Notes: generated by a model from the letters alone, not told the origin. Counted from the stretch's first letter, positions 13,313 through 53,574 are shown. The stretch: DNA of 64,000 nucleotides from a virus (IMGVR_UViG_3300045988_180880:192001-256000), one strand, 5' to 3'. Made by a program: numbers and translations.

Positions 13313-13322
13313 AATTGATGAG

Positions 13323-13814: not shown

Positions 13815-13815
13815 A

Positions 13816-14340: not shown

Positions 14341-14345
14341 TAAAA

Positions 14346-26604: not shown

Positions 26605-27584
26605 TGCCAGAAAATAATTTAAAAGGAACGGTACTCTATTCGGGTATCGTTCCCACCAATACTTCTGACGTATATCCAACACATTCAGCCATTTATGGTA
26701 TGGGAGGCTTCCGTTCAGTTAAAACAATAGCTGAGCGGGATGCTATTCCTGTAGAGCGACTAGAAGTAGGAGCTAAAGTATTGGTATCTGAACAAGAAAC
26801 TGGATATTACGTTGAATCAATAGTAGATGGAAAAGTAAATTGGCAACTTGATACTTATTTATTTGCTGATAAACTCTTAGCATCTCCAGTTATCTCTGGT
26901 ACTTGGAGTTTTAAAAATAATGCTGGTACAGAGGTTACAAATACAGAAGTTGGTGTTAGTAACGTAAATGCTAGTTCTATTACTATCGAACGAGGATATA
27001 AAGCAAAATTTGTTGGAAGTTTTAAATGGACTAAGACAACTACAAATAAAGCCCCTACTTCATGTAGTGGTGACTTAGGGACAACTTTACCTTCTAGTGA
27101 TGTTGCTTCTCCAACAACTACTATTGATAATATTGCTGCTTCCAGAGTAATTAAAGAAACCTTAAGTGCACCTAAAAAAGGATTCATGGTTTCTGGTAGT
27201 TCTGTAGTTGTTGCATCTGGAAATGATACGACATCTGCACAATTTAGTATCAATGTATGGTCTAGACAGAGATATGGTGTAACTACTTCAGCTACTCCTA
27301 CACAAGATGATATTAAAGCTATGACTGGAACAAAATTAGTCAATGCTAGAACTTTATCAGTTTCTGGAGTTACTGCTGATGGAACTCAATATTACAGTTA
27401 TGCTTACCCAAAAGACTTAGGAGCTCTTACATCAATTGTTCAGAATGGAGCAGCACCTGTTTTGGAAGACTTTAATAGAACTGAAGTGACTGTAACAAAT
27501 GGTGCAGGTGTAAATATCGTTTATTATGTATACACCTCTAAATATAAAGGTGCATTTCAAAATGTTAAACTAGATTTTAAATAA
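26604..27584 (+). CDS. fibre adaptor/attachment protein, paralogue 2
   Basis: C-terminal similarity to 16463..17944; its ATG overlaps the stop of the giant fibre. Confidence 0.6.
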   Translation: MPENNLKGTVLYSGIVPTNTSDVYPTHSAIYGMGGFRSVKTIAERDAIPVERLEVGAKVLVSEQETGYYVESIVDGKVNWQLDTYLFADKLLASPVISGTWSFKNNAGTEVTNTEVGVSNVNASSITIERGYKAKFVGSFKWTKTTTNKAPTSCSGDLGTTLPSSDVASPTTTIDNIAASRVIKETLSAPKKGFMVSGSSVVVASGNDTTSAQFSINVWSRQRYGVTTSATPTQDDIKAMTGTKLVNARTLSVSGVTADGTQYYSYAYPKDLGALTSIVQNGAAPVLEDFNRTEVTVTNGAGVNIVYYVYTSKYKGAFQNVKLDFK

Positions 27585-27601
27585 TTAAAGATTAGAATAC
27601 A

Positions 27602-29761: not shown

Positions 29762-29768
29762 AATAAAG

Positions 29769-29808
29769 GGAGGTTGATCAAGAGTAAAAACTTGATTGCC
29801 TCCTTTTA
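29769..29808 (+). terminator. hairpin terminator after fibre gene
   Basis: GGAGG..ATCAAG / CTTGAT..CCTCC interrupted stem, then TTTT. Confidence 0.45.
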
Positions 29809-29828
29809 AATTTAAAAGTAGGAATGAA

Positions 29829-32447
29829 ATGGATCAAATAATTAATTTTAAAATAAATACAGAACTATTTACAAGTAGATCTGAAGCGATCCTAGCCTTA
29901 GAAAACATTATATTTACTCAAGGAGAGCCAGTTATTGCAATTTATGGAACTACTTCTCAAAATGCTAAAATTATTCTAGCCGTCGGAAAAAGAAATGGAG
30001 CTGGAAAAAATGCATTTGAAATAATTTCCACTAAAGAAGATATGTCTGAAACTTTGAATATTATTAATTCTTTGAATAATGAGTTCACAGAACATATCAA
30101 AGCAGAAGCAGGTGATAAGCTTGGACATGTAATAACAGGAGGAGATATTGTTTTCTCTGGAGGTATAGGAACTGTAGTTTCGGCTGGAAAGGTAAAAAAT
30201 AAACTCACTTTTACTGGTGGAACTTTTGAAGGAACAGATAAAACTACATTTGATGGTTCTGAGGCTGTAACGATAAAAATTCCTAGCCCCTCATTTACTG
30301 TTCCTAAACCATTAGGACATGCAATAGCTGGAGAATCTAAGGAGTGGGCTAGAGCTGACCATGTGCATGAAGCTCCTAAATCAGTCTCTGGAAATGCTGG
30401 TAGTGCTGATAAATTAAGTTCTAAAAGAAATATAACTTTAACCGGAGCTGTTACTGGAGGTGTAGTAACTGATTTTTCAGGAGATATTACAATTAATACT
30501 TCCAAAAACCATACACATGATATTTCAGAGGTTACTGGTCTACGAGGTGAGTTGAACACCTTAGAAGCAACTAAAGCTCCCATTGAAAGTCCTATCTTCA
30601 CAGGAACTCCAGAGGCTCCAACAGCTCCACAAGGAACTAATACTAATCAGTTAGCTACTACTGCATTTGTTATCAAGGAAATTGGAGAAAAAATAGAAGC
30701 TGCTGTAGCCTTGAAATTTAAAGGAACTCTCGGAACAACTGGAACTGTTAAGAGTCTTCCTGCTCAACATACAACAGGTGACGTCTATGTTGCCACTACT
30801 GGAGCTCCGAATGTATCAGGACTTAGACTTGAACCTGGTGATATAATAATTTGTATCAAAGATGGTTCAACTGCTAATGATTCTGATTGGACAGTTGTAC
30901 AAACTAATATAGATGGAGCTGTAACAGGACCTGGAAATGCAGTTTCTGGGAATTTAGTGCTTTTTAATGGAACTACAGGAAAAGTTATATCAGATTCTGG
31001 TCTTTCATTAGCAGACCTAGCAAAAGTAACAACTACTATTTCTGCAGGCCCTGGTTTAACTGGAGGTGGATCTATTGGAGGAAATCAAGTAATATCACAT
31101 GCTTCTCAACCAACTACAGGAACTAATGCAGGGGGTAATTCTGGAGCTTTTGTCACCAACATTAAGATCGATTCCTTTGGACATGTTGTAGAAGCCTTAA
31201 AAGGAGACTTAACTGGATCATATCTAGCACCCTCCGGAGAATATATTTCAGGAATTACACTCTCAGGGAATACACTATCAGGAAATTCTAAACCATTCCC
31301 TAATATTGAAATTGAAAATGGAGAAGTAGGTGGATCGGAAGAATTTGTTACTGGAATCTCTGTAAATACTGTTTTAAATAATCATAGAATTCAAGTTAAT
31401 AAAGGAACAATCCCTGGAATAATAGTAACTGGAGATGGTGGTGAAGGAAATCCTAGAAAATATGTTTCAGGAATAGAATCAGATGGACATCATGGAATAT
31501 CTTTTACTACTTCTGAAGAATCTGGAATGGTTAAAGTTTCAAAAGATGGTTCAGCTGATTACTTAGGAAATAAAGTTCTCTCTGGAATTAGTTCTGGAAA
31601 TACTTATGCAACTACCGTAACTCAAGATACTGATGCTCTAAGATTAACTACTACAATTTCAGAGATAGATGGTGGAGATGATCAAGGAAGCCAAGGAAAA
31701 CGTCAAGTAATTAGAGTAAAAAGATATACTACAGGTGGAATTCTTCCTAGTGGGTTAGCTTCAGGGGAAATAGCTATAAACTTGGTTGATAATTATCTTT
31801 ATGTTGGAAATGAAAAAGGTGGAGTTCAAAGAGTCTATCCGAATGCTACACCACAAGTAGATGGTCTTTTATCAGCCGAAGATAAATCACGCCTCGAAAA
31901 AGCTATATCTGATATCGCTGATCATGCTTCAAGTCTGGGAACGATAAATACTGAGCTTGATGTTCTTGAGGAAGATTTGAAAGACACGAAGGAAAAATTA
32001 ACTGAAAAAATTTCTCAAGAATCCGAGGCGAGAAAAACGGCTGATCAAGATTTTAAGGAAAACTTGAATACTGAAACTCAAGAAAGAACTACCGAAGATA
32101 TTGCTATAAGAGAATATATAGACTCTACAAAATCAGAGTTAAATGAAAAGATAGATAAACTTATTGGTTCAGGAGGAGAGACTGAAGGAGGATTAGCTGC
32201 AGAAGTGGAAGCTAGAAAACAAGGAGATAAATATAACTTCGATCTCTTAAAATTTGCAATTCAGAGAGTAAATTCATCTGCTGGTTTTGAAGATCCTGAT
32301 CCCGATGATGACAGTATTTATAGTAATTTCCCAGATCTTTCAGATACACATTACCTAAGAGGGCAGAGCAATTTAGTAGGATGTCTTAAGGTTCTTGACC
32401 AGAAAATTTATGAACTAGAACAAGCATTAACCATTAAAACACTCTAA
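29829..32447 (+). CDS. tail fibre protein 3
   Basis: The track ORF starts at a TTG inside the terminator; first in-frame ATG is at 29829. Gly/Thr-rich beta-type sequence, ARADHVHEAP motif, C-terminal coiled coil. Confidence 0.7.
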   Translation: MDQIINFKINTELFTSRSEAILALENIIFTQGEPVIAIYGTTSQNAKIILAVGKRNGAGKNAFEIISTKEDMSETLNIINSLNNEFTEHIKAEAGDKLGHVITGGDIVFSGGIGTVVSAGKVKNKLTFTGGTFEGTDKTTFDGSEAVTIKIPSPSFTVPKPLGHAIAGESKEWARADHVHEAPKSVSGNAGSADKLSSKRNITLTGAVTGGVVTDFSGDITINTSKNHTHDISEVTGLRGELNTLEATKAPIESPIFTGTPEAPTAPQGTNTNQLATTAFVIKEIGEKIEAAVALKFKGTLGTTGTVKSLPAQHTTGDVYVATTGAPNVSGLRLEPGDIIICIKDGSTANDSDWTVVQTNIDGAVTGPGNAVSGNLVLFNGTTGKVISDSGLSLADLAKVTTTISAGPGLTGGGSIGGNQVISHASQPTTGTNAGGNSGAFVTNIKIDSFGHVVEALKGDLTGSYLAPSGEYISGITLSGNTLSGNSKPFPNIEIENGEVGGSEEFVTGISVNTVLNNHRIQVNKGTIPGIIVTGDGGEGNPRKYVSGIESDGHHGISFTTSEESGMVKVSKDGSADYLGNKVLSGISSGNTYATTVTQDTDALRLTTTISEIDGGDDQGSQGKRQVIRVKRYTTGGILPSGLASGEIAINLVDNYLYVGNEKGGVQRVYPNATPQVDGLLSAEDKSRLEKAISDIADHASSLGTINTELDVLEEDLKDTKEKLTEKISQESEARKTADQDFKENLNTETQERTTEDIAIREYIDSTKSELNEKIDKLIGSGGETEGGLAAEVEARKQGDKYNFDLLKFAIQRVNSSAGFEDPDPDDDSIYSNFPDLSDTHYLRGQSNLVGCLKVLDQKIYELEQALTIKTL

Positions 32448-32450
32448 TAT

Positions 32451-32663
32451 ATGGCATTAACTAATTTTTATAAAGGACCTGAAGCTGAATATTCTAGAGA
32501 GAAACATATTAATGGTATCTATATGAGCACTGATTCTAGAAAGCTTTGGATATTCGGACAACCAACACAAGAATTATCAGATATTATAGAAAAAACTGAT
32601 TATGATGCTCTTGAATCTAAAGATCCGAATTTAATATATATCGTAAAATTATCAGAAGAATGA
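32451..32663 (+). CDS. hypothetical small protein
   Basis: ORF-track ORF; operon packing. Confidence 0.5.
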   Translation: MALTNFYKGPEAEYSREKHINGIYMSTDSRKLWIFGQPTQELSDIIEKTDYDALESKDPNLIYIVKLSEE

Positions 32664-32974
32664 AAAAATTAATTCTAACCCTGATCACTACTCTATTAAT
32701 TATTTCTTGTGGTACTACTCGAAAATTTAATACTACTTTTTATGAAGGCTTTTCGATAGAACCACAAAGAATAGTAGATAGTATAACTACAGCAAATTTA
32801 CTTCCAGCGTCTATAGAATATCAAGAATGGCCTAAGTTGATGTACTTTACTAGTGATTCAGTTATAACTACACAGTATACGACTATAACCACTAAAGAAG
32901 ATACGACTTATATATTCTCGATAACTGAATCCGCTGGAGATAGTATATACTTAATTAAATTTAGAAAAGAATAA
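32660..32974 (+). CDS. lipoprotein (possible spanin-type or exclusion lipoprotein)
   Basis: Signal peptide with lipobox: MKKLILTLITTLLIISC|GTT. Sits just before the holin-like gene. Confidence 0.55.
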   Translation: MKKLILTLITTLLIISCGTTRKFNTTFYEGFSIEPQRIVDSITTANLLPASIEYQEWPKLMYFTSDSVITTQYTTITTKEDTTYIFSITESAGDSIYLIKFRKE

Positions 32975-32979
32975 TAGTT

Positions 32980-33285
32980 ATGGATTTTGTATCAGTATTT
33001 TCAACATTAGCTGCTTTAGTGGCTGGTGTTCCTGTTGTTACACAGGCAATTAAGAAACTTATAGGTAAAGAACTTCCAGGGTGGGCTAATCAATTAATTT
33101 CTTGGATAGTTGCCATTGGATTATGTATGTTCGGTTGGTTTTTCGATCTTGGATGTCTTGCTGAAGCTTCTTGGTGGCAATCTCTCATAGTAGGCGCTGG
33201 TGTTGGATTAGCTAGTAACGGTGTATTTGATATCGCTCTAGTTCAGGGAATACTTGAACTTATATTCGGAAAAATAAAAAAGTAA
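32980..33285 (+). CDS. holin-like membrane protein
   Basis: 101 aa with about three hydrophobic segments and a charged C-terminus (GKIKK), directly upstream of a peptidase gene. Confidence 0.5.
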   Translation: MDFVSVFSTLAALVAGVPVVTQAIKKLIGKELPGWANQLISWIVAIGLCMFGWFFDLGCLAEASWWQSLIVGAGVGLASNGVFDIALVQGILELIFGKIKK

Positions 33286-33287
33286 TT

Positions 33288-33869
33288 ATGAGATCTTACG
33301 GTTATATTAAAACAGAAAACCTAGAAAGTTACTCAGAATATAAACCACAACCTATCACACTTCCGGCCGAATATAAACTCAAAGATATCGGCAAAGTGTG
33401 GGATCAAGGTAGTGTCGGAAGCTGTGTTAGTCATTCAATAGCAGAAATGTATAATTTTTATCAGCTAAGTCATGGAAAAACTCTAGAGAAAAAGCCTGAT
33501 TGGTTATACTATCTTAGAGCTGATAAAACAATAGATGGAATGATGCCTGCTGAAGGTTTCGAGTTAATGAAAACGGCCGGAGAAATAAAAATCTTCTCAA
33601 GAATATCAACTATCGAAGGAATTAAACATGCAGTAATAACAAATGGACCTGCACTTATAGCTGTTATTGTAAGAAACGGAGAACGTGATGATTTCTGGAA
33701 TGGTTCTGAAAACTTAGGAGGACATGCGATAAGTATTGTTGGTTTCTCTAGAGATGGATTTATGATAAAAAATTCTTGGGGTTATGGATATGCAGAGTCC
33801 GGTTTTTCTGAGATGAGCTATGAAGATGCTGGAAAAGTAATTCGAGAAGCTTGGACTATAATAGAATAA
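33288..33869 (+). CDS. papain-family (C1-like) cysteine peptidase, candidate endolysin
   Basis: DQGSVGSCVSHS (catalytic Cys context), GGHAISIVGF (His) and IKNSWG (Asn-Ser-Trp) in canonical order. Confidence 0.65.
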   Translation: MRSYGYIKTENLESYSEYKPQPITLPAEYKLKDIGKVWDQGSVGSCVSHSIAEMYNFYQLSHGKTLEKKPDWLYYLRADKTIDGMMPAEGFELMKTAGEIKIFSRISTIEGIKHAVITNGPALIAVIVRNGERDDFWNGSENLGGHAISIVGFSRDGFMIKNSWGYGYAESGFSEMSYEDAGKVIREAWTIIE

Positions 33870-33875
33870 AAAAAG

Positions 33876-33912
33876 AGACTAGTAAAGGGTTTAATTTTCC
33901 CAATACTAGTCT
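33876..33912. terminator. bidirectional hairpin terminator between convergent genes
   Basis: AGACTAGTA (33876-33884) / TACTAGTCT (33904-33912), with A-run and T-run flanks. Confidence 0.55.
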
Positions 33913-33922
33913 TTTATTTTCT

Positions 33923-34603
33923 TTATATCCTCTCTATAAATACCTCATAATCATCTTTACAATACCAACTTGGACATGTATGAGGATTTCCATGTCTATT
34001 TCCTTTTCCTCGGTTTATATAACTTTTCCATCTATATATTGTATCAGATTTCTTAAGAGCTTTCCACCAAACATCAAGTGTCGTTTTTATCCATGAACCT
34101 TTCTCGGCTATTATGTCTGATGGATTAACTAAAGGTTTATTATTATCGTAGTCTCTCAAGTGATGCCAAATATAAGGTCCAGTATATACAAATTTCTTCG
34201 GCCTTGGAGAATATACGGCGATGAATTTTTGGTCGTCAGAATAATCATCATCTCCTGTGTAACAAAAATCTACTTGAATCTCTTTTATCCCGACCCTCCT
34301 TAGTATCGCCGTTTTTTCATCAGGCCGTAAATTATAATACTCATCTCTTATTATCTTTTTCCCAGTCAAATCTCTAAGATAAAAGAATCTACCATTACCT
34401 TCTTTCCCAGGGATCATATCTTTAGGAGACTTACCTAATAAAAAAGTTTCAATATAACCTTTGGGAAATGCATAAAATCCCTTCCTAACTGGAGCTGTAT
34501 GAAATCCTCGAAAAGGTGAATCCCCAGGGAGTGATCCCTCTTTATGATCCTGTGGAGATAAAGTACCCCACCTAAAAAATTCATAACTATTCCTCTTTTT
34601 CAT
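33923..34603 (-). CDS. hypothetical protein
   Basis: ORF-track ORF with a complex Trp/Tyr-rich sequence; no recombinase motifs. Confidence 0.6.
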   Translation of the reverse strand: MKKRNSYEFFRWGTLSPQDHKEGSLPGDSPFRGFHTAPVRKGFYAFPKGYIETFLLGKSPKDMIPGKEGNGRFFYLRDLTGKKIIRDEYYNLRPDEKTAILRRVGIKEIQVDFCYTGDDDYSDDQKFIAVYSPRPKKFVYTGPYIWHHLRDYDNNKPLVNPSDIIAEKGSWIKTTLDVWWKALKKSDTIYRWKSYINRGKGNRHGNPHTCPSWYCKDDYEVFIERI

Positions 34604-34910
34604 AAACTCTATTTTTAAAAGTTACAGCCGAAAATCTCTTCTTTACTACTTTTAAGACTTTTTTCTCCAAAGATCGATACTCATTAGAAGAATAATCACG
34701 TTTTAATTCAATATATTCCCAAGGCTCGTCATAAATAAATTCCCAATCAGATGTGCACTTAATTAATTCAGCTGTCCATGGATCTGAATGTCTCCACCTA
34801 AGATAAATACAATAACCTTGAGATGAAATCGGATCAAGAAAATAATAATAACATTGACTTGGACACCATATTAAATCCTCTATCCAATAACCTAATAATT
34901 GTTCGTTCAT
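34587..34910 (-). CDS. hypothetical protein
   Basis: ORF-track ORF. A CCTTATATATG motif lies 25 nt upstream on the minus strand. Confidence 0.6.
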   Translation of the reverse strand: MNEQLLGYWIEDLIWCPSQCYYYFLDPISSQGYCIYLRWRHSDPWTAELIKCTSDWEFIYDEPWEYIELKRDYSSNEYRSLEKKVLKVVKKRFSAVTFKNRVYEKEE

Positions 34911-34935
34911 ATATAATATACTGTTTTTTCATTAA

Positions 34936-34946
34936 CATATATAAGG
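34936..34946 (-). promoter_or_regulatory. candidate promoter CCTTATATATG for 34587..34910
   Basis: Perfect motif family core on the minus strand, 25 nt before the ATG at 34910. Abuts inverted repeat A. Confidence 0.4.
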
Positions 34947-34969
34947 AAATAAACGTTCCTTTAAATCAG
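34945..34969 (+). repeat. inverted repeat A (GGAAATAAACGTTCCTTTAAATCAG)
   Basis: Its perfect 25-bp reverse complement is at 35614-35638. The core TAAACGTTCCTTTAA is shared with 39628-39648 and 40315-40335. Confidence 0.9.
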
Positions 34970-35272
34970 GATGGTAGTCACAGAACTGTACAAATATCTT
35001 TAACTCCAGTATCTGCTTCAGATTGGATATTATCCGGAAATGTTAATGGAATCTTATTCACTATAAATTCTCCCGAAATATCTACCTCTGTAGATTTATC
35101 AAACACTATACCAAAGGAAATTAATGTACGTGTAATTGCAACCTATTCTTACAGAAGTAATTCTGGTGGGATAGGTAAATGGATGGTAGGTTCTGCTGAG
35201 TCAAATAGTGTATCATTTTCTCAAGGGGAAACAGGAAGTAAAACGATTTCAGTTATTGGAAGACCTTATTAA
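34946..35272 (+). other. start-less coding cassette 1L (EINVPLNQ + ~100 aa beta-rich domain)
   Basis: Open frame from the IR to TAA at 35270-35272. The track ORF 34823..35272 gains its Met only by running antisense through 34587..34910. Confidence 0.55.
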
Positions 35273-35289
35273 ATTAATTTCCTTCTATT

Positions 35290-35637
35290 CTATAATACTT
35301 TTTCAGTTCTAATATTAATTGTTGTTTCTTTATCTTTAAATATTGTAAAAGTACTATTAATATTTGTAATAATATATTTATTAGGACTTTCTACTGATCC
35401 TCCATCTATTATTCTATAAGTTCCAACTCTTAATGTATGGGTACTAGAGTAACTAGAAGAACCCTCTTCATTAGTGATTGGTGTAGTAATTTCAGATTGT
35501 ATGCCATCATCTTCATTTTTTATAATAATAAATAGATGAATGTATTCTTCTATATCTATATTAAACCATTTCCAGTCTATATTTAAAGTTCCTAAATTTA
35601 AAATCTTACCACTCTGATTTAAAGGAACGTTTATTTC
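35290..35637 (-). other. start-less coding cassette 1R (EINVPLNQ + ~107 aa)
   Basis: Minus-strand frame is open from the IR to TAG at 35290-35292 (115 codons). There is an in-frame TGA two codons upstream of the IR, no ATG, and the ORF is absent from the ORF track. Confidence 0.55.
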
Positions 35638-35638
35638 C
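35614..35638 (-). repeat. inverted repeat B
   Basis: Perfect reverse complement of 34945-34969. Confidence 0.9.
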
Positions 35639-35645
35639 GATCAAT

Positions 35646-35660
35646 TCCTTATTAATGTAT
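35646..35660 (+). promoter_or_regulatory. candidate promoter TCCTTATTAATGTAT
   Basis: Motif family member, 25 nt upstream of the ATG at 35685. Confidence 0.4.
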
Positions 35661-35684
35661 ATTAAAATTAAATAAATTAATCAT

Positions 35685-36413
35685 ATGAAGACAGGAATTG
35701 AAACATTAATTTCAGAGGTTGGAAAAAGAATTACTAACAAAACCCAAGTAGAAGGAGGAATTATTTCTGGTTTAGGAATAAATAAAACTAATGGAAAAGA
35801 ATACGTTATTATAAGCGTTTGTGGATCATCGAACATGACGAAAGATCAACTTAATGATCTTTGCGATATTAAAATTATTACTGAAAAACTTATTACAGAG
35901 ACATTCGATTCTAATGGAATTCCAATGTTTTCTTATTGTACAATAGACGAATTCTTTAATTATTGGAATATCGTTAATGATGAAGAAATTAAAAGTTCGA
36001 TAAATTTAACTTTTAAAGAAGCAAAAGAATTATTTTCCTCAACAATATCTTGGGATATAAAAGAGAAGATCTTAAAAATTTATTCAAGAAGACAACTTGA
36101 AGGTCTTCCAGAAAAAATAGAATATCCAAAAGTACCACAAGATTATCCAGCTGAAAAATTTAGAGATAGTGCTAGAGCTTTTAAGGAACTAATTTGGTTA
36201 GTTAAAGAATATACCAAAGCATCAGCTCTTCAAGAACCTAACTGGAATGATTACTCACAAAATAAATTTGCTATTGTGAGATGTGGTGAAGCAGTAATGA
36301 TTTCGAAAGAAAAAACTTTCTTTCCAATAGCCTTTCTCTCTAAAGAAGTTGCTCAAGTATTCTTAGAAGATCATAAAGAGTTATTAGAAGAATATTATAT
36401 GATTGGAAAATGA
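35685..36413 (+). CDS. hypothetical protein
   Basis: ORF-track ORF with an upstream motif. Confidence 0.6.
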   Translation: MKTGIETLISEVGKRITNKTQVEGGIISGLGINKTNGKEYVIISVCGSSNMTKDQLNDLCDIKIITEKLITETFDSNGIPMFSYCTIDEFFNYWNIVNDEEIKSSINLTFKEAKELFSSTISWDIKEKILKIYSRRQLEGLPEKIEYPKVPQDYPAEKFRDSARAFKELIWLVKEYTKASALQEPNWNDYSQNKFAIVRCGEAVMISKEKTFFPIAFLSKEVAQVFLEDHKELLEEYYMIGK

Positions 36414-36625
36414 AAAAATTATTGATTATCCTAATTTTAATATTAGTTTCCAGTTGTGAAGTAGATCTAGAAGAGTATTCTGGATGGATTATTAAAGAAA
36501 AACGTCGAGAACCTTTAGGACTTAATTTTATTATTAGTGATCCAAACAATAATAAAAATTGGAAAATTTTAATAGTTCAAAATTATACATATAAAAAATA
36601 TAATATTGGAGATACAATAAAATGA
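36410..36625 (+). CDS. small lipoprotein
   Basis: MKKLLIILILILVSSC lipobox; ATGA overlap with the upstream gene. Confidence 0.55.
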   Translation: MKKLLIILILILVSSCEVDLEEYSGWIIKEKRREPLGLNFIISDPNNNKNWKILIVQNYTYKKYNIGDTIK

Positions 36626-37467
36626 AAGAATTAAAAACAGCTTCCCTCTCAGAAATTCCAGAGAGATTAGAAAAATCATTAACTCCGGAAAATGGGTATT
36701 CACGAAAAACAAAGAATATCCTAGTAAGATATGCTAGATGGTCGTTAACTTATAATAAGATAATGATGAAGTCTGATACTAAGTATATAAATTTTGAATA
36801 TAGTGTTGTTGGAGTTTATCCGTATATTTATCTTATCCCAATTATTAAAGTATATAAGTTAGATCGAATAATTGGAAATAACCTAGTTTATTCAGTTATC
36901 GATACTATAAAAGATCCGAAAGTTTGTTTTGATATCCCGGCTCTTATAGAATTAGGAGAAAAGCATGGAGTAGAGTTTAGACAATATCGTGGAAAAGGTC
37001 CAAATAAAAAACCCATGGCGAGAGTAATGCTAAGAAAATTCACGGATATAGAGAGCTCGTATTTTTACCTTGAAGATTACATTTCAACAGATGATATAAT
37101 AATTGAAACTTTCGATGGACTTAAGAGCTCAGAACAACGTGATATATTCTTAGAACTAGGAACGCCATGTTTTTGTATGACGTTAGATTCTGAAACAAAA
37201 GAATGGATTTTTTCTCTTAATCCTACTATTGGATCCTTTCCTGAAGATATAAATTTTCAAGGATATCCAGATGATTGGTCAAACGAGGGAATAATTCAGA
37301 GATATCAAGAATTTTCCGAAGATCTTCAGAAACCACGTCAAAAAGTAACTCCAGAATCGGTAGCTGAAGAAAAACGATTGGAGATGGAGAGAAGAAAAGA
37401 ACAGAAACGTACTAAAAATAGGAATAATGATAGATCTAAGAAAATATGCAATATTTCCGGAAAGTAA
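36622..37467 (+). CDS. hypothetical protein (basic C-terminus)
   Basis: ORF-track ORF; ATGA overlap with the upstream gene. Confidence 0.6.
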   Translation: MKELKTASLSEIPERLEKSLTPENGYSRKTKNILVRYARWSLTYNKIMMKSDTKYINFEYSVVGVYPYIYLIPIIKVYKLDRIIGNNLVYSVIDTIKDPKVCFDIPALIELGEKHGVEFRQYRGKGPNKKPMARVMLRKFTDIESSYFYLEDYISTDDIIIETFDGLKSSEQRDIFLELGTPCFCMTLDSETKEWIFSLNPTIGSFPEDINFQGYPDDWSNEGIIQRYQEFSEDLQKPRQKVTPESVAEEKRLEMERRKEQKRTKNRNNDRSKKICNISGK

Positions 37468-37609
37468 TAATTTTTTGGATAGTAGTACTCCAGGGTTAGA
37501 AGAATTAGAAAGATTTAATAAGATCATGGAAGAAACGCAGAAAAATTTGAATATAAAATCAGGATCAAGAAATGATATAATTTATGAAAAAGAAGCTGAC
37601 AAAAAATAA
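37427..37609 (+). CDS. hypothetical small protein (start uncertain)
   Basis: ORF-track ORF that overlaps both neighbours. Confidence 0.35.
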   Translation: MIDLRKYAIFPESNNFLDSSTPGLEELERFNKIMEETQKNLNIKSGSRNDIIYEKEADKK

Positions 37610-38123
37610 ATGGATAACTTCAAAAGGTGAGGAATTATCTTTAGAAGAAATGAACAGTTCTCATATATTAAATGCAATCAGAAAAATAAAATCTTCAACA
37701 GGATGGAGAGAAGATTGGCTTCCTATCTTAGAAGCAGAACTAACTAGAAGAAGTATGATAGCAAGAACAGATGATTATGAGAAAAAGATCATAACTGATG
37801 AGGAAAAAATGTATTTCTTATGTACTTCATGTGAATACCAAATGTTATCTGTTGAAGGTGGTAGTTTATCTGATATACTGAATATTACTATTAATGATCA
37901 AGTAAAAAGTTATATAAGAGATAATATTTTTTGTATACCTCTTGAACAATCTAAGGAAAATTTTATTTCGGAGATGGATAAATTAATAAGAAAAACTAGA
38001 AGTAATTCTAAAGAAGATGCTGAGAAATTTATGAGTTATTATGAAAAATATCTTCTAATTAATGTCTTTTCAAAAGAATGGAGTAATTTTATGAACTTAA
38101 TGTTAGGTCGTCATGGAAAGTAG
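37584..38123 (+). CDS. hypothetical protein
   Basis: ORF-track ORF; operon packing. Confidence 0.55.
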   Translation: MKKKLTKNKWITSKGEELSLEEMNSSHILNAIRKIKSSTGWREDWLPILEAELTRRSMIARTDDYEKKIITDEEKMYFLCTSCEYQMLSVEGGSLSDILNITINDQVKSYIRDNIFCIPLEQSKENFISEMDKLIRKTRSNSKEDAEKFMSYYEKYLLINVFSKEWSNFMNLMLGRHGK

Positions 38124-38349
38124 AATCAAAGAATCAATTATTAAACACTTAGAGTATCAAAAAAGTATTGCTAAAGATCCCGAAGGACCGTTTATATGTT
38201 GTCCTATGCCTGGTAAAAATTCATGGACCATTTCTGAAATAATAGAGGAAGTAAGAAAAGAGACAGAATTTGGAGAGGAATTTGCAGATGATGTTATAGG
38301 ATTAGCTATTGATATTTTATGTCGAAAGAATCAATCAATGAATGGATAA
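38113..38349 (+). CDS. hypothetical protein
   Basis: ORF-track ORF; operon packing. Confidence 0.5.
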   Translation: MESRIKESIIKHLEYQKSIAKDPEGPFICCPMPGKNSWTISEIIEEVRKETEFGEEFADDVIGLAIDILCRKNQSMNG

Positions 38350-38534
38350 ACTCTCAAGAACTAACAACCGAAGATCTTGATTTTATGTGGGATTTTTGTA
38401 TAGTTTTCGGTCATCCTGTAATATCTAAACTTGGAATGGCTTCTTGGAAAGATTTACGTCCAGACTTAATTAAACAAATTCCGAACGAATATGAGAAGAT
38501 GGTAGAAAAAGTAATATATAATAATAAGGAATAA
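38319..38534 (+). CDS. hypothetical protein
   Basis: ORF-track ORF; operon packing. Confidence 0.5.
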   Translation: MSKESINEWINSQELTTEDLDFMWDFCIVFGHPVISKLGMASWKDLRPDLIKQIPNEYEKMVEKVIYNNKE

Positions 38535-38992
38535 TGAAATTATTGAATTTAGAGGAATATTTAACTCCAGAAAGTATAAAAGTACATGATATTAATCAAT
38601 GGGATTCATTTTTATTTAACTTACTTGAAGAAGAAAATATATATCCACCTAAACTTACTGGACAATGGATAACAGATAAAAATAGATTTTATGAAAAGTT
38701 TGTATGTTTGAAAGAAGTAACTGAGAATACTTATTATCCTATGTATTGTAGACAATATAATCCAATTGAAATTACTATATATCATGAAAAGAATGGATTA
38801 TATGATTTTAAATGTATGTTAATAAGTATTGACGATACAGCTTTTGGGTTTGGATGGGAAAATTTAGAAAGACTTAGCATAGATAAATATGTTCTAGAAA
38901 TTATATCTTGGATTGATAAAGTAGATAAATTAGATCATGAAGAATTAATTAAATATGGACTTTCTTTAGGTGCAGAAGATTTAAGTTGGTAA
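38534..38992 (+). CDS. hypothetical protein
   Basis: ORF-track ORF; its ATG overlaps the upstream stop. Confidence 0.55.
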   Translation: MKLLNLEEYLTPESIKVHDINQWDSFLFNLLEEENIYPPKLTGQWITDKNRFYEKFVCLKEVTENTYYPMYCRQYNPIEITIYHEKNGLYDFKCMLISIDDTAFGFGWENLERLSIDKYVLEIISWIDKVDKLDHEELIKYGLSLGAEDLSW

Positions 38993-39004
38993 TTAAATAT
39001 AAAC

Positions 39005-39118
39005 ATGAATGATTTTAAAATAAAAGATATAGTAAAAGGATTAATGATTTGTACTTTTATTTCAGGGTTTTTAATAGGTATCTTATCAGTTTTAATTTTA
39101 ATTTATTCAACAATATGA
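39005..39118 (+). CDS. small membrane protein (37 aa, below track cutoff)
   Basis: ATG at 39005. Sequence MNDFKIKDIVKGLMICTFISGFLIGILSVLILIYSTI. ATGA overlap with the next gene. Confidence 0.4.
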   Translation: MNDFKIKDIVKGLMICTFISGFLIGILSVLILIYSTI

Positions 39119-39576
39119 AGAAAGAATTATATGATGAGTATGTAAAAGCTTGGGATATTTGGAAGAAAAGAACTGATGAATATTTTCAAAAAAGAGTTGA
39201 AATAATTAAAGATAAAACTCTCTCCGAAGAATCTCAATCAAAACTTTTAGACACATTAGCAGAGAATTTTGATAGAAAAGGTTTTACAGAAGAATATTTT
39301 GGACCTTGGACGGAAATAAGAGATGTTACTGATCTATTAAATCCTGACTTCATTTTACCAGGAATAGGCAAGAATTATTCAGAACTTCAAATAGCGAAAG
39401 ATGATGTTCCAGGAAATTGGGGTAAGATTGCTAGAGATTGTTATGATCCTAAAAGATATGGAAAAATAATTGGACTTGGATATGATTCCGGAGATTATTA
39501 TCTTATTATAGAAAACCCTGATACTGGAGAAGAATCAACAATCTTAATGAATACTAAGTATACTATTGATTCATAA
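39115..39576 (+). CDS. hypothetical protein (track ORF 39049..39576 trimmed to first ATG)
   Basis: In-frame ATG at 39115 (MKKELYDEY...). The upstream part of the track ORF starts at TTG and overlaps the small TM ORF. Confidence 0.55.
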   Translation: MKKELYDEYVKAWDIWKKRTDEYFQKRVEIIKDKTLSEESQSKLLDTLAENFDRKGFTEEYFGPWTEIRDVTDLLNPDFILPGIGKNYSELQIAKDDVPGNWGKIARDCYDPKRYGKIIGLGYDSGDYYLIIENPDTGEESTILMNTKYTIDS

Positions 39577-39584
39577 AAGAATAT

Positions 39585-39620
39585 AAGACTAGGATTTTAT
39601 TTTCCTAGTCTTATTTTTCT
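39585..39620 (+). terminator. hairpin terminator
   Basis: 10-bp perfect stem AAGACTAGGA (39585-39594) / TCCTAGTCTT (39603-39612), then ATTTTTCT. Confidence 0.6.
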
Positions 39621-39627
39621 CTTACCA

Positions 39628-39648
39628 TTAAACGTTCCTTTAAGTCAA
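39628..39648 (+). repeat. inverted repeat C (TTAAACGTTCCTTTAAGTCAA)
   Basis: Its reverse complement at 40315-40335 has one mismatch. An imperfect extension outward includes the flanking hairpins. Confidence 0.85.
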
Positions 39649-39963
39649 TATGCAAAAGCTGTTTATGTTAATCTCATTGTTACTTGGAGTGGAGATCCAA
39701 GTAGACCTTATGGAGCACACTTTACTTTAACTAGTAATGGTTTTGTACACGGTTTTCAAGAAATATCTAGTTCCGGTGTTCTTCCAGGAGATACAGAAAC
39801 TTTCTCAATACAAATAATAAATGATTATAATGTTTTTTCGTGGAGTTCTTCTGGTGTTTGGTATGCATATCACGATGATCTAAAACAAATACAATCTACA
39901 ATTAGTCCTAGTTCTGGAAATTTTAGCGCTAATAATGACATATACATAACTTTTAATACATAA
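39628..39963 (+). other. start-less coding cassette 2L (LNVPLSQ + ~104 aa)
   Basis: Frame is open from 39577 to TAA at 39961-39963, with no in-frame ATG. It is in frame with 39115..39576 across that gene's TAA. Confidence 0.5.
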
Positions 39964-39984
39964 AATTAAAGATAAAAATAATTT

Positions 39985-40335
39985 TTAATTGTTCTCTGGA
40001 AGTATTGGAAGACGAATATCTATATAAAAAACTTGTTCAGACTCTGAAAGAGTTATATTACTAGGAGTACATACTCCCAATTGACTATATAGACTTCCAG
40101 CCGAGTATAAAAATTCAAGATAATTTGATCCAAAAAATTCTGAATCTATTTTTTGAATTTTAGTATCCGTATATGCACTTCCCATTCCAGATCCTTTAAA
40201 TTCAAAAGAAGGTATTCCAACTTTTCTTAAAGTTAACATCCAATTAATTTGTCTTCCATTACTAGAAGAAGGTATATTTATTTTAAATGTCCAGTATTTA
40301 ATTCTTTCACCCTCTTGATTTAAAGGAACGTTTAA
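39985..40335 (-). other. start-less coding cassette 2R (LNVPLNQ + ~109 aa)
   Basis: The track ORF 39985..40239 extends upstream, without a stop, to the IR. An in-frame TAA lies 10 codons upstream of the IR. Confidence 0.5.
40315..40335 (-). repeat. inverted repeat D
   Basis: Reverse complement TTAAACGTTCCTTTAAATCAA; 20/21 match to repeat C. Confidence 0.85.
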
Positions 40336-40339
40336 AGTA

Positions 40340-40377
40340 AAAGAAAAATAAGAGATAGGATTTTATTTCCTATCTCT
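40340..40377 (-). terminator. hairpin terminator of 40370..40876
   Basis: 10-bp perfect stem AGAGATAGGA (40351-40360) / TCCTATCTCT (40368-40377). Loop and arms resemble the 39585 hairpin. Confidence 0.55.
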
Positions 40378-40876
40378 TTTTCACACTCTCCGAAATAACC
40401 TCTTCTAATTCACCTTCTGTAATATAATCCATTAAAGTTTCTTCGAATTCTACATTTATCCAAGCTTGCAACATAGCTGTATTTTCAAAATCTTCATAAC
40501 TCAGATTTCTTAACTTAACTATCTGATCTACGGCATGTCTTGTTTCGTGATAAAATGTAGTTTTGATATTCTTAACCAAACTTTTATAATCCTTTTTGGC
40601 AATAAAAGGTCTATTTCTTCTAGAGTCAATGTTTACTATTACTACTACTTGATCGAATCCTGTTGTTTTATTAATAATTCTATAAGTAGATGTTCCGGAT
40701 GTTGAACTTATTGTTTCTATAAGTTCTTCTGCTCTTGAATTTTTCTTTACCGGAATTTCCATTTTATGATTCTTTACAAACTTAGTAGTAAACCACCTCG
40801 TCATTTCTTTCTGTGTTCCAATTCCAAAATTAATTTCTACTCTATAAGAATCATGTTTTAATTTACTTATTTTCAT
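40370..40876 (-). CDS. hypothetical protein with HExxH motif
   Basis: FYHETRHAVDQ; otherwise no recognisable family. Confidence 0.55.
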   Translation of the reverse strand: MKISKLKHDSYRVEINFGIGTQKEMTRWFTTKFVKNHKMEIPVKKNSRAEELIETISSTSGTSTYRIINKTTGFDQVVVIVNIDSRRNRPFIAKKDYKSLVKNIKTTFYHETRHAVDQIVKLRNLSYEDFENTAMLQAWINVEFEETLMDYITEGELEEVISESVKKR

Positions 40877-40950
40877 ATTCTTAAAAATTTAAACTCCTTA
40901 AGCTTTTTATTATTGCTTAAGGAGTATTGTTTTACATTATTTATTTTCTC

Positions 40951-41367
40951 TCATGTATAAGGCTTTAAAGCTCTCTGAAAACGACTATACAAATAAATAT
41001 ATAGTTCATCAGCTAAATTAAATCTACTTAAGTCAGCTTCTATATTCTTTTGAATCTTAACTAAATAATAGATCAGATCAAGCCGAGTACGAGTTTCCTG
41101 AAGTTGAAATCTAAGTATATCTCTAAAAGTGAAGATACTTATATAATCGATCTTAATTCCATATAAATCTTTAAACTTATCAACAGTCATAGTTCCTCTT
41201 TTTATTCCAGAGTTATTAATAAAATCAACTACTTCTGGGATATAATAAGAAATTACAAAGTTTGATAAATTATCTATAGGAAGTTTCGAAGTAAATGCTA
41301 TAAATGTATGAAGAACTAAACCTCTTAGACTTATAGTATTATATATTACCTTATCTTCATAATCCAT
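40951..41367 (-). CDS. hypothetical protein
   Basis: ORF-track ORF, followed by a 10-bp hairpin (CTCCTTAAGC/GCTTAAGGAG, ~40886-40925). Confidence 0.55.
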   Translation of the reverse strand: MDYEDKVIYNTISLRGLVLHTFIAFTSKLPIDNLSNFVISYYIPEVVDFINNSGIKRGTMTVDKFKDLYGIKIDYISIFTFRDILRFQLQETRTRLDLIYYLVKIQKNIEADLSRFNLADELYIYLYSRFQRALKPYT

Positions 41368-41368
41368 C

Positions 41369-43270
41369 TTAACTTACTGTAGTATGTTTTGTTTTTATTA
41401 CTTTGGTTTTCACTATTTCATTCAAAAGTTTCGGCATTTCCTCTAAGTTATATCCGATATCTATATAAGTATCAAACATATCTTCAACACCGTAAACAGC
41501 ATCTATACTAATCTGAATTATTCCGAATCCAAGTTTTTCTGCTTCTTTTACTTTTGCGGCAGTATCTTTTATTGCTGGAATTCCTCCATATCCATTTGCA
41601 CAAGGGCTACCATCAGATATCACAAACATAATACAATTCTCTTTTGTGAACTTTCTAACTCTCTTTGCTACTTCTAGAATTGCATCTCCATCTCGATTTT
41701 GGGATTTTGCACAACTCTTAGATAATGAAAACTTAGGATTATAATGACTTCCTTCTCGATACACACTCAGATTTATATATCCGATCGAACCAATATCTGC
41801 AGTATGTCCATAAATATATAGATCAACTCCCAAACTTTTTCCGAAGGTTTCATTTAGAAGTATTGCAGCCTGTCTCGCTAGGATTTCCTTTTTTCCACCC
41901 ATAGATCCAGACTCATCAATAAGAACACATATAGTTGATTTATTGGTTCTAACATGTCCCTGTCTTAGGTAAACTTGTGGAACTCCTTGATATGCTTCTG
42001 CAAGTTTTGTCGTATCTAGAATTCCAGACCTACAACCTTGGATATTAAAATCATAGTTCTTATCTGTTCCTGTCAATATCTTTTTTAATCTAGGAACATA
42101 TTTTTGAACTGCTCTCACATCACATAAATAACTATTTCTATCCCCTTTTGGTTTTTCAAAGAATACCTTATCAGAATCACCACGTTCTACTGTTCCCTCT
42201 AAGATTTTCATTGTTAGGCTGTCCTTTAATGATAATAACCTAGATACTTTAGACTTATCTATCTTTCTTCCAGAATCTAAGTCAACTCCATACATTATAC
42301 TAGTTATAGATTCAGTATCATTAATTAAGAATAATATTTTTTTTAATTCCGCCGGATCTATATCAGATAATTTCTTCTCCTTAATTATCTTAAATATACT
42401 TTCAGAAACACTACAAATATCTTTAAGATTTTCTGGATATGGAGTTATCTTTTCTTGAACTTCTTTGTATACCTCAGAATACTCCTCAAGAATCTCCTCT
42501 TCTATTAATCCAGGAAATCTAAGTATCCCTATTAATGTTTTAAAGAAAAGAATCAACTTCCTCTCCCTCATCATATTAAGTCTTCCCTCTAGAGTCTTAG
42601 AATTATAACTTTTCGCACAATCAATAAAATCTTGAAATCCTGGTCGTTCTGTTAGTAATAAATCCTCAACTCTATTATCCTCAAGAAGATTTATGAAAAT
42701 TTTAATAATCTCTCCTTCTTCAGAAGTATATTTTCCACTTATAAAACTAAGAAAATTCAAATAAACTCTTAAGTAGGTATATCTTAAGTGTGCAGCCTCA
42801 TGAAGACCAAATCCACAGAAGGCATTTATTTTTGTTTCATTATCTTCGGTGGAGTCAAATATCTTAGAAGGGACTGCTATTCTTCTTTCGGAATTATCTC
42901 TTTTCTCTTCTGAAAAATAATCTGAATACGAACTACTTTCATCACTACTCTCATTTAAATTTACTTTAATCGGGAAAGGAAAATCCATTATAGTTATCAT
43001 ATCTTTTACAGAACTATAAGCCTTTTCAATTAACTTAGATAATTGTGCATCCTCTTCCTTTCCAACAGATGAATATGAATAATAACTTTCTCCATACCAA
43101 GAGCTTCTATTTATAGTTCTACTTAGCTCTCCAGAATTTCCGACAGATGATTTATAGGATTTTCTAAATATACTCCTACCCCATCTACCATCATCTTCGT
43201 CATCATAGTAATCATCATAATCCTTTCTTTTCCACCAAGGATAATATGAGGTTGAAAAATGTTTACTCAT
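41369..43270 (-). CDS. HExxH + vWA domain protein (CobT-like)
   Basis: GLHEAAHLRY in the N-terminal half; MIDAS-like VLIDESGSMGG and a vWA-like C-terminus. Adjacent to an AAA+ ATPase gene. Confidence 0.7.
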   Translation of the reverse strand: MSKHFSTSYYPWWKRKDYDDYYDDEDDGRWGRSIFRKSYKSSVGNSGELSRTINRSSWYGESYYSYSSVGKEEDAQLSKLIEKAYSSVKDMITIMDFPFPIKVNLNESSDESSSYSDYFSEEKRDNSERRIAVPSKIFDSTEDNETKINAFCGFGLHEAAHLRYTYLRVYLNFLSFISGKYTSEEGEIIKIFINLLEDNRVEDLLLTERPGFQDFIDCAKSYNSKTLEGRLNMMRERKLILFFKTLIGILRFPGLIEEEILEEYSEVYKEVQEKITPYPENLKDICSVSESIFKIIKEKKLSDIDPAELKKILFLINDTESITSIMYGVDLDSGRKIDKSKVSRLLSLKDSLTMKILEGTVERGDSDKVFFEKPKGDRNSYLCDVRAVQKYVPRLKKILTGTDKNYDFNIQGCRSGILDTTKLAEAYQGVPQVYLRQGHVRTNKSTICVLIDESGSMGGKKEILARQAAILLNETFGKSLGVDLYIYGHTADIGSIGYINLSVYREGSHYNPKFSLSKSCAKSQNRDGDAILEVAKRVRKFTKENCIMFVISDGSPCANGYGGIPAIKDTAAKVKEAEKLGFGIIQISIDAVYGVEDMFDTYIDIGYNLEEMPKLLNEIVKTKVIKTKHTTVS

Positions 43271-43276
43271 AGTCTA

Positions 43277-44431
43277 TTAATAAGATAATATTGTTTTATA
43301 TACTGTACTTCTTTCTCCTTCCAAATTAGTTCCTTCATAGATTGGAAGATATACCATTTCCATAGCACTTTTCACACTCCAACCATCTGATACTAACTCT
43401 GAGATCATTAGTGTTTCTCGAATTGATATAGAAGTTGAGATCTCCTGTTTCTTTGAGAGTGATCTAATATTATTCGCTATCTTCACAATTGATCTAGCTA
43501 CTTCTTCATCAATTCCCGTTCTATTAACCAAAACATTTACTTCTTCTGTATCTGGTATAATATTAAGTTCAAGAGGAAAAAATCGATTAAGAAGTGCTCG
43601 GTCTATCATATTAGTTCCAGTATATTCAGAACCTATATTAGCTGTTGCAATAAATGTTACCTCTGGATGAATTTTAATACTTCTAACTCCTTTCCCACAA
43701 GCTATTTCAACATTCAATTCCCGTCTATCATCTAAACAAGGAAACAATACATTATTAGCCCCAAGAGAAGAACGATTTAACTCATCTAAGAGAATTACAC
43801 ACGGTTCTTGAATTACTTTAGTGAACTTAGCATAATCAAATATACTTTTTCCATCTTCTAAGCGATGAACTCCAAGTAAATTTGAAATAGGATCAATCAT
43901 AGAACCCATATCAAACACATGAAGAGGTATACCCATTCTAGAACAAACTTCTTTTACACAACTTGTCTTTCCAGAACCTGTAGGCCCTATAATCATCGTA
44001 TTAACATGTTTTTTTATATTTCTCACTAAGATTCTCCAATTATCAGGGGTCATATAAAATCCATCCTTTGTAGAACTTGGAGAAATTAGTGATGCATCTT
44101 TAAGAATTGTTTCGAGAATCGTATCTTTCTTTAAGGGATCTACGAAATCAATTCCAGTCAGAGTTTTATATTCTTTTTTAGCTTCTTCATCTTTATATGT
44201 TAATCTTTGAAATCCCTTTTGTGTATAAAACTTTCCACCTGAAGAACTAAGATTAAGAAAAGTTGAGATAAATATAGTACCTTCTGAATAAACATCTCTT
44301 ATCTTCTTAGGGCATTGTACATAAAGACTTGTAGATACATTAGAACCATCCTTCAATTTTTGTCCAGGGAGTGCTTTTACTTTCAAATTTCCTTTAACTA
44401 ATACTGTCTCTAAAAAATAATACTTACTCAT
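43277..44431 (-). CDS. AAA+ ATPase (CobS/MoxR, AAA_5-like)
   Basis: Walker A GPTGSGKTS, Walker B ILLDELNRS, FIATANIG, LLNRF. Confidence 0.8.
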   Translation of the reverse strand: MSKYYFLETVLVKGNLKVKALPGQKLKDGSNVSTSLYVQCPKKIRDVYSEGTIFISTFLNLSSSGGKFYTQKGFQRLTYKDEEAKKEYKTLTGIDFVDPLKKDTILETILKDASLISPSSTKDGFYMTPDNWRILVRNIKKHVNTMIIGPTGSGKTSCVKEVCSRMGIPLHVFDMGSMIDPISNLLGVHRLEDGKSIFDYAKFTKVIQEPCVILLDELNRSSLGANNVLFPCLDDRRELNVEIACGKGVRSIKIHPEVTFIATANIGSEYTGTNMIDRALLNRFFPLELNIIPDTEEVNVLVNRTGIDEEVARSIVKIANNIRSLSKKQEISTSISIRETLMISELVSDGWSVKSAMEMVYLPIYEGTNLEGERSTVYKTILSY

Positions 44432-53136: not shown

Positions 53137-53185
53137 GAAGAAAATAAAAAGAGAGAAACCTATTAAGGCCTCTCTTTATTTTTTT

Positions 53186-53503: not shown

Positions 53504-53544
53504 AATTTCTTGTTTTTCTCAATAATAAGGCTTTGAAGGTAAAA

Positions 53545-53559: not shown

Positions 53560-53574
53560 TAAAAATTAAAGAAT

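Follow-up and report, generated by a model that had tools for sequence, protein, structure and literature searches.

Site-specific inversion is an established way for phages to exchange the 3′ part of a fibre gene. In the G segment of Mu (Gin), the C segment of P1 (Cin), e14 (Pin) and p15B (Min), serine invertases act on 26-bp dyad sites with a 2-bp centre, the alternative 3′ ends are kept as convergent pairs of cassettes, and the invertase gene adjoins a region of 3-4 kb with two to six sites; Min of p15B, with several sites, yields many permutations. The R64/IncI shufflon, in which Rci acts on sfx sites, has many sites and one constant N-terminal part (PilV); a conserved, coding right arm is combined with a variable left arm, Rci makes inversions only, and the system occupies ~2 kb of contiguous DNA with rci adjacent. 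The Rin shufflon of Bifidobacterium prophages performs multiple inversion on a receptor-binding gene of a gut bacterium's phage, from a compact prophage locus with its own adjacent invertase (PMC6109161). In a temperate BV01-like phage of Phocaeicola vulgatus, a 1.7-kb shufflon with three cassettes, the motif TGGGAGAACT and a flanking recombinase gene gives six isoforms of a carbohydrate-binding fibre with alternative C-termini, and its authors propose that it counters capsule phase variation (PMC13596623). Here we analyse IMGVR_UViG_3300045988_180880:192001-256000, a stretch of 64,000 nucleotides (the window) which, judged from its genes, is part of a jumbo phage of the Jug group, ~400 kb in size and with a Bacteroides/Phocaeicola host. 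Four short cores in alternating orientation between positions 34,945 and 40,335 are very probably sites of an active shufflon that swaps the tips of fibre-like proteins.

Taken as a whole, the explanation we consider likely is that a multiple-inversion system of Jug phages uses the four cores for its crossovers and is driven most likely by a recombinase of the Mpi family. The system is functionally of the Mu/P1/p15B and R64 kind and, on the evidence available, undescribed; the text of the paper on Jug phages says nothing of inversions, of a recombinase or shufflon, or of tail fibres (PMC12880540). The BV01-like shufflon, from the same host family, is its nearest published relative in phages of Bacteroidaceae. 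Five features distinguish the Jug system from known shufflons: its scale, the placing of its modules among insulated gene blocks, replication genes included, two candidate expression genes, the lack of a nearby recombinase, and a site resembling that of host invertons. Whereas the regions in Mu, P1, e14 and p15B are small and carry their invertase, the Jug shufflon has at least 16 sites over ~29 kb, with seven unrelated multi-gene passenger blocks that include a DNA polymerase, and no invertase or other recombinase was found within ~84 kb around it in the window and its flanks. Unlike R64, its site is a symmetric dyad of the serine type with a core unrelated to sfx, its modules are dispersed among gene blocks, and no tyrosine recombinase was detected in the sequences searched. 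What it shares with shufflons in general are at least three alternating sites, alternative 3′ cassettes in a shared frame and breakpoints at the sites; a dedicated recombinase gene beside the invertible DNA was not found in the window, its flanks or 630 kb of related loci.

The 19-mer TAAACGTTCCTTTAAATCA has exactly four matches in the window when up to three mismatches are allowed, against a chance expectation of 0.06, and none of 100 shuffles reached four. Core A (34950-34968, +) is TAAACGTTCCTTTAAATCA itself and core C (39629-39647, +) is TAAACGTTCCTTTAAGTCA, with one mismatch; cores B (35615-35633) and D (40316-40334) are matches on the minus strand, and the consensus of the four is TAAACGTTCCTTTAA(A/G)TCA. 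They stand at two strand switches of the gene map, 34587-34910(-)|35685(+) and 39576(+)|40370(-). The original prediction had placed four cores of alternating orientation at these switches, with two modules filling the divergent and the convergent gap, and both the cores and the gene limits hold. Each module is 694-734 bp long and lies between inverted repeats of 32-34 nt. The arms of module 1 are site A (34945..34976, +) and site B (35607..35638, -), which agree over 32 nt at 94%; those of module 2 are site C (39615..39648, +) and site D (40315..40348, -), which agree over 34 nt at 79%. Searches with shorter cores and at the protein level revealed no fifth site anywhere in the window.

All four cores encode N-V-P-L-(N/S)-Q in one common frame, and each opens a reading frame that lacks a start codon. 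Cassette A (34952..35272, +; NVPLNQDGSHRT..., cluster C25) runs for 106 codons before its stop and converges with cassette B (35290..35631, -; NVPLNQSGKILN..., cluster C24), which has 113; cassette C (39631..39963, +; NVPLSQYAKAVY..., cluster C1), with 110 codons and a stop, converges with cassette D (39985..40332, -; NVPLNQEGERIK..., cluster C4), with 115 and a stop. From base composition, a stop-free run of 106 codons at 31% G+C is estimated at p ~2e-4 for each. The two convergent pairs thus formed consist of four cassettes that are mutually unrelated in sequence. The N-V-P-L codons are invariably AAC GTT CCT TTA (p = 0.012 under the codon usage of the window, in which just 14% of the codons for Asn are AAC), and this fixed synonymous spelling against codon bias indicates a constraint on the DNA and not on the protein. 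The family of cassette C has a dN/dS of 0.14 at a dS of 0.37. An AlphaFold2 model of cassette C is an eight-strand beta sandwich of moderate confidence (pLDDT 70) with generic Ig-like matches only in a fold search of the PDB, and its homologues fall into only 11 clusters, every one in Jug phages.

The extent of the system is seen in related phages. The 18-mer core was found in 38 IMG/VR viral loci, and in long contigs the two flanks of the window enclose ~29 kb, as against 5.4 kb in the window. There the array comprises at least 16 sites in eight two-cassette modules, and seven passenger gene blocks. Contig 3300045988_180568 reads S2, PolA, gene1/gene2, NADAR-radical SAM, RlaP, P-type ATPase, TerD, S1, S0, with a module of two facing cassettes between every pair of neighbours and ~16 strictly alternating sites. 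The modules of relatives consist of 0.65-2.7 kb of coding cassettes; across 150 sites, the 123 complete cassettes form 38 families at 80% identity, and a single family may stand behind up to nine upstream contexts, as does that of cassette C (nine distinct contexts, one of them an expression context). The exchange of C-termini foreseen in the original prediction is therefore upheld, while its scale of four cassettes fell short: the system is about six times larger, with 38 families population-wide.

Order and orientation of the seven blocks vary in almost every assembly, which is the outcome of the gene-order comparison that had been proposed as a check. These comparisons are between assemblies, with one made within an identical strain background. 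The gene beside site D is identical in ten assemblies, yet at least six different blocks come next; the first gene of block S1 is identical in eight assemblies and has at least six different left and at least five different right neighbours. Relative to S0 and the left flank (L011, L008), and likewise to S2 and the right flank (L302, L304), S1 is found in either orientation, as an inversion between sites B and C would produce. Identity between relatives ends inside the core, where BLAST alignments to the window terminate, and a core is ~100 nt or less away from at least 17 contig ends; the cores accordingly behave as the recombination sites they had been taken for.

Two modules of relatives depart from the common pattern. 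At 8348-8411 of locus L008, a module is collapsed to two facing cores 63 nt apart, followed by 27 and 23 open codons, which is evidence of possible cassette loss. Contig 3300045988_180568 (L004) has a large module with extra cassettes at 52695-53888, between PolA and the longer of the two genes described below; at the sites of these cassettes the right half (GTTCCTTTAA) is kept and the left half reads ATT, TAT or ACT instead of AAC. They may be decayed sites or a second class of site.

Most cassettes are silent where they stand. The usual contexts are a position after a terminator or the promoter end of a block with at most 50 open upstream codons, and a hairpin, a T-run and then the core is the layout at most silent sites of relatives. 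In the window, an intrinsic terminator of the last S1 gene (39583..39614, +) lies directly upstream of site C and keeps cassette C silent, and that of the gene at 40370-40876(-) lies at 40350..40378 (-), directly upstream of site D. The upstream frames are as had been predicted: 50 codons are open at site A, with an ATG 41 codons upstream, and 18 at site C, and in-frame stops lie 3 and 10 codons upstream of sites B (context GATCGGAAATA) and D. Sites A and C were considered as expression sites and rejected, given their short upstream frames, overlap with an opposite-strand gene or a preceding terminator, and contexts that are never long in relatives. The silent context of site A (TATAAGGAAATA) was found at 30 sites of relatives, with at most 50 open upstream codons every time. 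The open frames at sites A and C are incidental; the expression locus belongs elsewhere, which was the third of the places originally suggested. Another context, GATATGAAAATA|AACG (for example L007 8897, L012 5284, L023 6397), has an ATG that precedes the core by two codons (M-K-I-N-V-P-L), which would explain why databases hold many 113-aa free-standing cassette 'proteins' (P0001, P0003 and P0006 among them).

Two contexts in relatives, neither of them in the window, have long open upstream frames. A long constant gene ('...SDSSNI|NVPL') brings 748-869 open codons before the core and a short one ('...SWPSPSNI|NVPL') 474-480. Both are strings of BACON/Ig-like repeats (fn3_6 and BACON matches), 37% identical and placed head to head, and their sequences suggest that they serve as the expression sites. 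Window cassettes B, C and D are each fused to a constant gene in other assemblies. In locus L049, identity to the window ends at 35634 (core B) and is followed by a gene of 479 codons whose C-terminus is cassette B, and in L025 the fusion partner of cassette D is the long constant gene. The swapped tip domain presumably contacts the host surface and may have a role in receptor binding.

The short constant gene has a nonsense codon (WGN*QTAS) in several strains (L005 1740, L016 4642, L031 553), is interrupted by an in-frame stop in L008 (3566), and is without an N-terminus of its own; it may be a silent or dispensable 'body' copy and not a second expressed gene. A 49-nt perfect inverted repeat encoding YGKSSSASSANVSQAEN links the two genes, at 6594-6642 and 7567-7615 in L049 and also in c179253, L008, L016, L042, L044 and L046. 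One arm falls near codon 270 in the long constant gene, the other at the 5′ end of its short counterpart, and they co-vary within genomes. From this layout, inversion of the ~1 kb between them could transfer the promoter, together with the N-terminal 270 aa, to the other body, a possible second-tier switch. The flipped state was seen in none of nine repeat-carrying loci, and a junction-specific scan of IMG/VR gave 0 matches.

Polymorphic positions within the site, numbered so that the first A of AAC is 0, locate the crossover. Those up to and including -3 are fully set by the upstream block, and from +7 onwards they go with the cassette family, which confines the crossover to TAAACGTTC, around the central TT. 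Centred on this TT (+4/+5) is a consensus dyad of the 12-2-12 form, TTAATATAAACG-TT-CCTTTAAATCAA, with arms that agree at 9-10 of 12 positions. In its short form it is TTTAAACG-TT-C(C/G)TTTAAA, and the right half doubles as the N-V-P-L codons. A 12-2-12 dyad is the layout of the hix and gix sites of Hin/Gin-type serine invertases, and with these the Jug site has in common a 26-bp imperfect dyad with an asymmetric 2-bp centre. An element-encoded small serine recombinase with a C-terminal helix-turn-helix, as in the Hin/Gin/Cin type, was not found in the window, its flanks or 630 kb of related loci. Systems of that type also have a recombinational enhancer that works with Fis or another host factor, for which no consensus is known in Bacteroidales.

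Close counterparts of the site are found in the host. Bacteroidales capsule invertons are single promoter segments of ~200 bp under ON/OFF control, whereas the phage has at least 16 coding sites in the kilobase range that serve domain swaps; the cores are nearly identical, TTTAAACGTTC(G/C)TTTAA, and in both the central TT has the same polarity relative to the invertible DNA. The repeat of the Bacteroides uniformis capsule (upcY) promoter inverton is CGTCCATTAAACGAACGTTTAAAAAAC (PMC12691588), and its reverse complement contains TTTAAACGTTCGTTTAA, from which the phage core differs by one base (CCT for CGT); phage sites with CGT, which open NVRL cassettes, match the host core at 18 of 18 positions. 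Scanning gut metagenomes with the TTTAAACGTTCGTTTAA 17-mer gave at least 119 loci and, among the matches listed, ~60 inverted pairs 189-216 nt apart. In both of the two loci examined the pair lies directly upstream of genes for NusG-like UpxY, UpxZ and polysaccharide synthesis, and such pairs have the appearance of classic Bacteroidales capsule invertons. The corresponding genome scan with the phage 17-mer returned only single chance matches among the matches listed, this pattern being too phage-specific. In B. fragilis, inversion of the polysaccharide promoters needs the serine recombinase Mpi, a trans-acting enzyme with many dispersed target sites (PMC4747536). Of the marks of Mpi-dependent invertons, the phage has the core AAACGTTCGT (TTTAAACGTTCGTTTAA) within inverted repeats, and it lacks a promoter segment of ~200 bp with ON/OFF control. 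The Mpi consensus is presumably ARACGTWCGT, which our literature text searches did not confirm; the link to the host does not rest on it.

These observations would fit the following mechanism. Start-less cassettes of ~100-225 codons, each presumably encoding a beta-sandwich domain, are stored as convergent pairs flanked by inverted sites, and these modules alternate with insulated gene blocks that have their own promoter and terminator. A site-specific recombinase would join any two opposite sites and invert everything between them, so that passenger blocks are reshuffled along the way. A new cassette would then land in frame behind one of the two constant, fibre-like BACON/Ig-repeat genes and change its distal tip domain, and displaced cassettes would be parked behind terminators or in-frame stops. 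The 49-nt inverted repeat might add a second tier, in which the N-terminal head of the fibre is moved between two bodies. The enzyme could be provided by the Bacteroides/Phocaeicola host; alternatively, a gene elsewhere in the 400 kb of the phage could encode a homologue. Of all this, the sites, the cassettes, the shuffling at the cores, the in-frame fusions and the agreement of the core with host inverton repeats are observed, and the family and origin of the recombinase and the receptor-binding role are inferred.

That enzyme is probably a serine invertase of the Mpi type, as suggested by a site nearly identical to the capsule-inverton repeat and by a hix-like dyad with an asymmetric central TT. 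More tentatively, it may be supplied by the host. A lytic 400-kb phage without a shufflon invertase of its own would then have copied the site of a host inverton and would let the host's Mpi scramble ~30 kb of its genome and deal new fibre tips, a scenario we think possible without favouring it. Host Mpi and a distant phage-encoded copy appear about equally plausible to us, with a tyrosine recombinase as the lesser possibility. The search for the enzyme covered 30 window ORFs (open reading frames) and 10 ORFs from relatives with Pfam, the Pfam annotations for 10 kb beyond each window end, and phmmer comparisons of Hin, gamma-delta resolvase, XerD and FimB with all window ORFs and all ORFs of 58 loci (630 kb); ORFs at 821-14924 were covered by phmmer and Pfam annotations only. 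In the window, its flanks and the 630 kb of related loci there were no Resolvase or Phage_integrase matches and no similarity to Hin, gamma-delta, XerD or FimB, and the called genes inside the shufflon of relatives include no recombinase. A serine recombinase beside a host-type core in locus L255 was discarded as a candidate; it is a clostridial plasmid resolvase far below the cut-off of the Mpi family, and its adjacency is a coincidence.

Alternative explanations differ in how much of this they retain. The same shufflon could be driven by an Rci-type tyrosine recombinase encoded elsewhere in the Jug genome. This we regard as unlikely, although the cassette-side arm of the sites is invariant and the upstream arm variable, as in R64, and the sites alternate everywhere, with apparently inversions only. 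Tyrosine invertases of Bacteroides, such as Tsr0667, do perform shufflon-type inversions (PMC4747536). The good 12-2-12 dyad with its 2-bp centre and the agreement of its arms point the other way, as does the match to capsule-inverton repeats that are flipped by a serine enzyme; the searches, in which single sequences are insensitive for this family, gave no tyrosine recombinase. A dedicated recombinase might be dispensed with altogether if the 19-32 bp simply encode a shared linker motif and exchange takes place by general or microhomology recombination, through annealing proteins or template switching. Such an origin is accommodated by the position of the repeats inside coding sequence, by the lack of a recombinase gene nearby and by the high-copy replication and ready recombination of jumbo phages. 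It is very improbable considering that synonymous positions of the core are invariant against the codon bias of the window, that crossovers are confined to the core although homology extends over only 15-19 bp, that the dyad matches a known class of invertase substrate, and that strict site alternation is kept and direct-repeat deletions are not dominant.

The rearrangements could also be artefacts, with one fixed gene order from which assemblers made chimeras at short repeats. The evidence comes entirely from metagenome assemblies, contigs often end at cores, and the path of the window itself is probably such a short cut. Against this, dozens of independent assemblies have differing junctions that are all exactly in frame, and start-less cassettes under purifying selection, parked behind terminators, would be senseless without exchange. 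The repeats (19-34 nt) are moreover shorter than the assembly k-mers (k99-k141), from which it follows that real reads span every junction; we give this explanation very little credence. Least probable of all, to our minds, are non-autonomous MITE-like transposable elements of ~0.7 kb with terminal inverted repeats, inserted between the gene blocks. Modules of 694-734 bp bounded by inverted repeats of 32-34 nt do have the outline of such elements, but their interiors are unrelated and hold a convergent pair of ORFs, each opening precisely at a repeat. There is no target-site duplication at the outer module ends and there are no near-identical copies, as would mark a MITE or an insertion sequence; in relatives it is within the core that breakpoints lie and not at the repeat's outer edge, and cassettes are fused in frame to long genes.

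Several points weigh against the shufflon driven by an Mpi-family enzyme. No recombinase of any family was found in the window, 10 kb past either end or in ~630 kb of related loci, with ~300 kb of the genome outside this search, and the enzyme family was assigned from the appearance of the site. The known substrates of Mpi are local invertons of ~200 bp, and Mpi is not known to join sites tens of kb apart. The window is without an expression gene and its arrangement is not reproduced in any other assembly. That a single sample is heterogeneous is deduced from where contigs break and from two alternative junctions, seen once in an identical background, of which one may be a mis-join. The fibre role draws on weak domain matches and on proximity to tail genes, and the PDB search gave only generic Ig-like folds.

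The arrangement of the window itself is peculiar. Two stretches compared, 1-12899 and 23923-35634, are 100.000% identical to scaffold_62 of ENA ERZ28664562 (109,786 bp; L049), and the window is therefore from the same strain. On this other scaffold of the strain, gene2, gene1 and PolA adjoin module 1, whereas in the window the path runs from S0 through a module, S1 and a second module to S2. This four-site path is matched by no other assembly, although each single junction is seen elsewhere, and the polymerase block, the ATPase block and the expression genes are missing from it. Inversions cannot remove DNA, and the window is therefore either a short cut taken by an assembler or curator or a rare deletion between directly oriented sites; an assembly short cut is probably the case. 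Many assemblies end ~360 nt from the gene for a 226-aa flank protein, that is, at site A. Assemblies of ~370 kb stop at sites A and D and those of ~400 kb include the whole shufflon. The shufflon explains both the breaks at the sites and totals of ~370 kb instead of ~400 kb, and such truncation may underlie some of the spread in published sizes of Jug genomes, 360-402 kb.

The fixed left flank S0 (33923..34910, -), at the end towards the tail genes, holds two genes of unknown function and is the border of the shufflon in all relatives. The fixed right flank S2 (40370..44431, -) encodes a 168-aa protein, a 138-aa protein, a VWA/CobT-like protein and a MoxR-type AAA ATPase. Between the modules, S1 (35685..39576, +) inverts and relocates as a unit. 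The plus-strand block amid minus-strand genes stands as described in the original prediction, save that it has nine called genes and not ten; none belongs to a recognisable family. Rfam gave no RNA family in 32000-43000.

The Jug identity of the window is indicated by a P-type ATPase, a TerD protein and an nrdD gene split by an HNH element, and thousands of human-gut assemblies carry proteins identical to those of the window, encoded on contigs 370-402 kb long. Phages in GenBank have no similar DNA, and the polymerase reaches only ~22% identity at best. Jug phages, with genomes of 360-402 kb and Bacteroides/Phocaeicola as predicted hosts, reportedly account for ~1.1% of the reads of metagenomes from the human gut, and their intron-split nrdD (PMC12880540) is matched by that of the window. 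This gene for the anaerobic ribonucleotide reductase (58158-62546, -) is in pieces, at 58158-58946 and 61857-62546, and the ORF that separates them (60811-61743) is for an HNH/NUMOD4 endonuclease.

Two other genes of the window are variable in relatives or repetitive. A tail-fibre-like gene at 27602-29761(+) encodes 719 aa with a Peptidase_S74 (endosialidase chaperone) domain, and its counterparts in assemblies with an identical 226-aa flank protein are 266, 326, 376, 516, 529 and 838 aa long, with one further copy, of 458 aa, truncated where its contig stops. The gene marks a second hot spot of fibre variation, independent of the first. Within the ORF at 17953-26604, for a protein of 2883 aa with weak Apolipoprotein-like matches, the segment 23150-25750 aligns with the end of locus L013 at 66-72% in many staggered positions, which indicates that this giant protein holds a long internal tandem repeat.

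A repertoire of at least 16 tip cassettes per genome, and of 38 families population-wide, would do much to determine the host range and persistence of these phages, which rank among the commonest in the gut. With essential genes as passengers, their order and orientation are not fixed, and 'complete' genomes with a short shufflon, probably including the one from which this window comes, likely lack ~24 kb including the DNA polymerase gene. The site shared with the capsule switch of the host would link host phase variation to counter-variation of the phage. If host Mpi does supply the recombination, the phage would counter capsule phase variation by means of the very enzyme that generates it.

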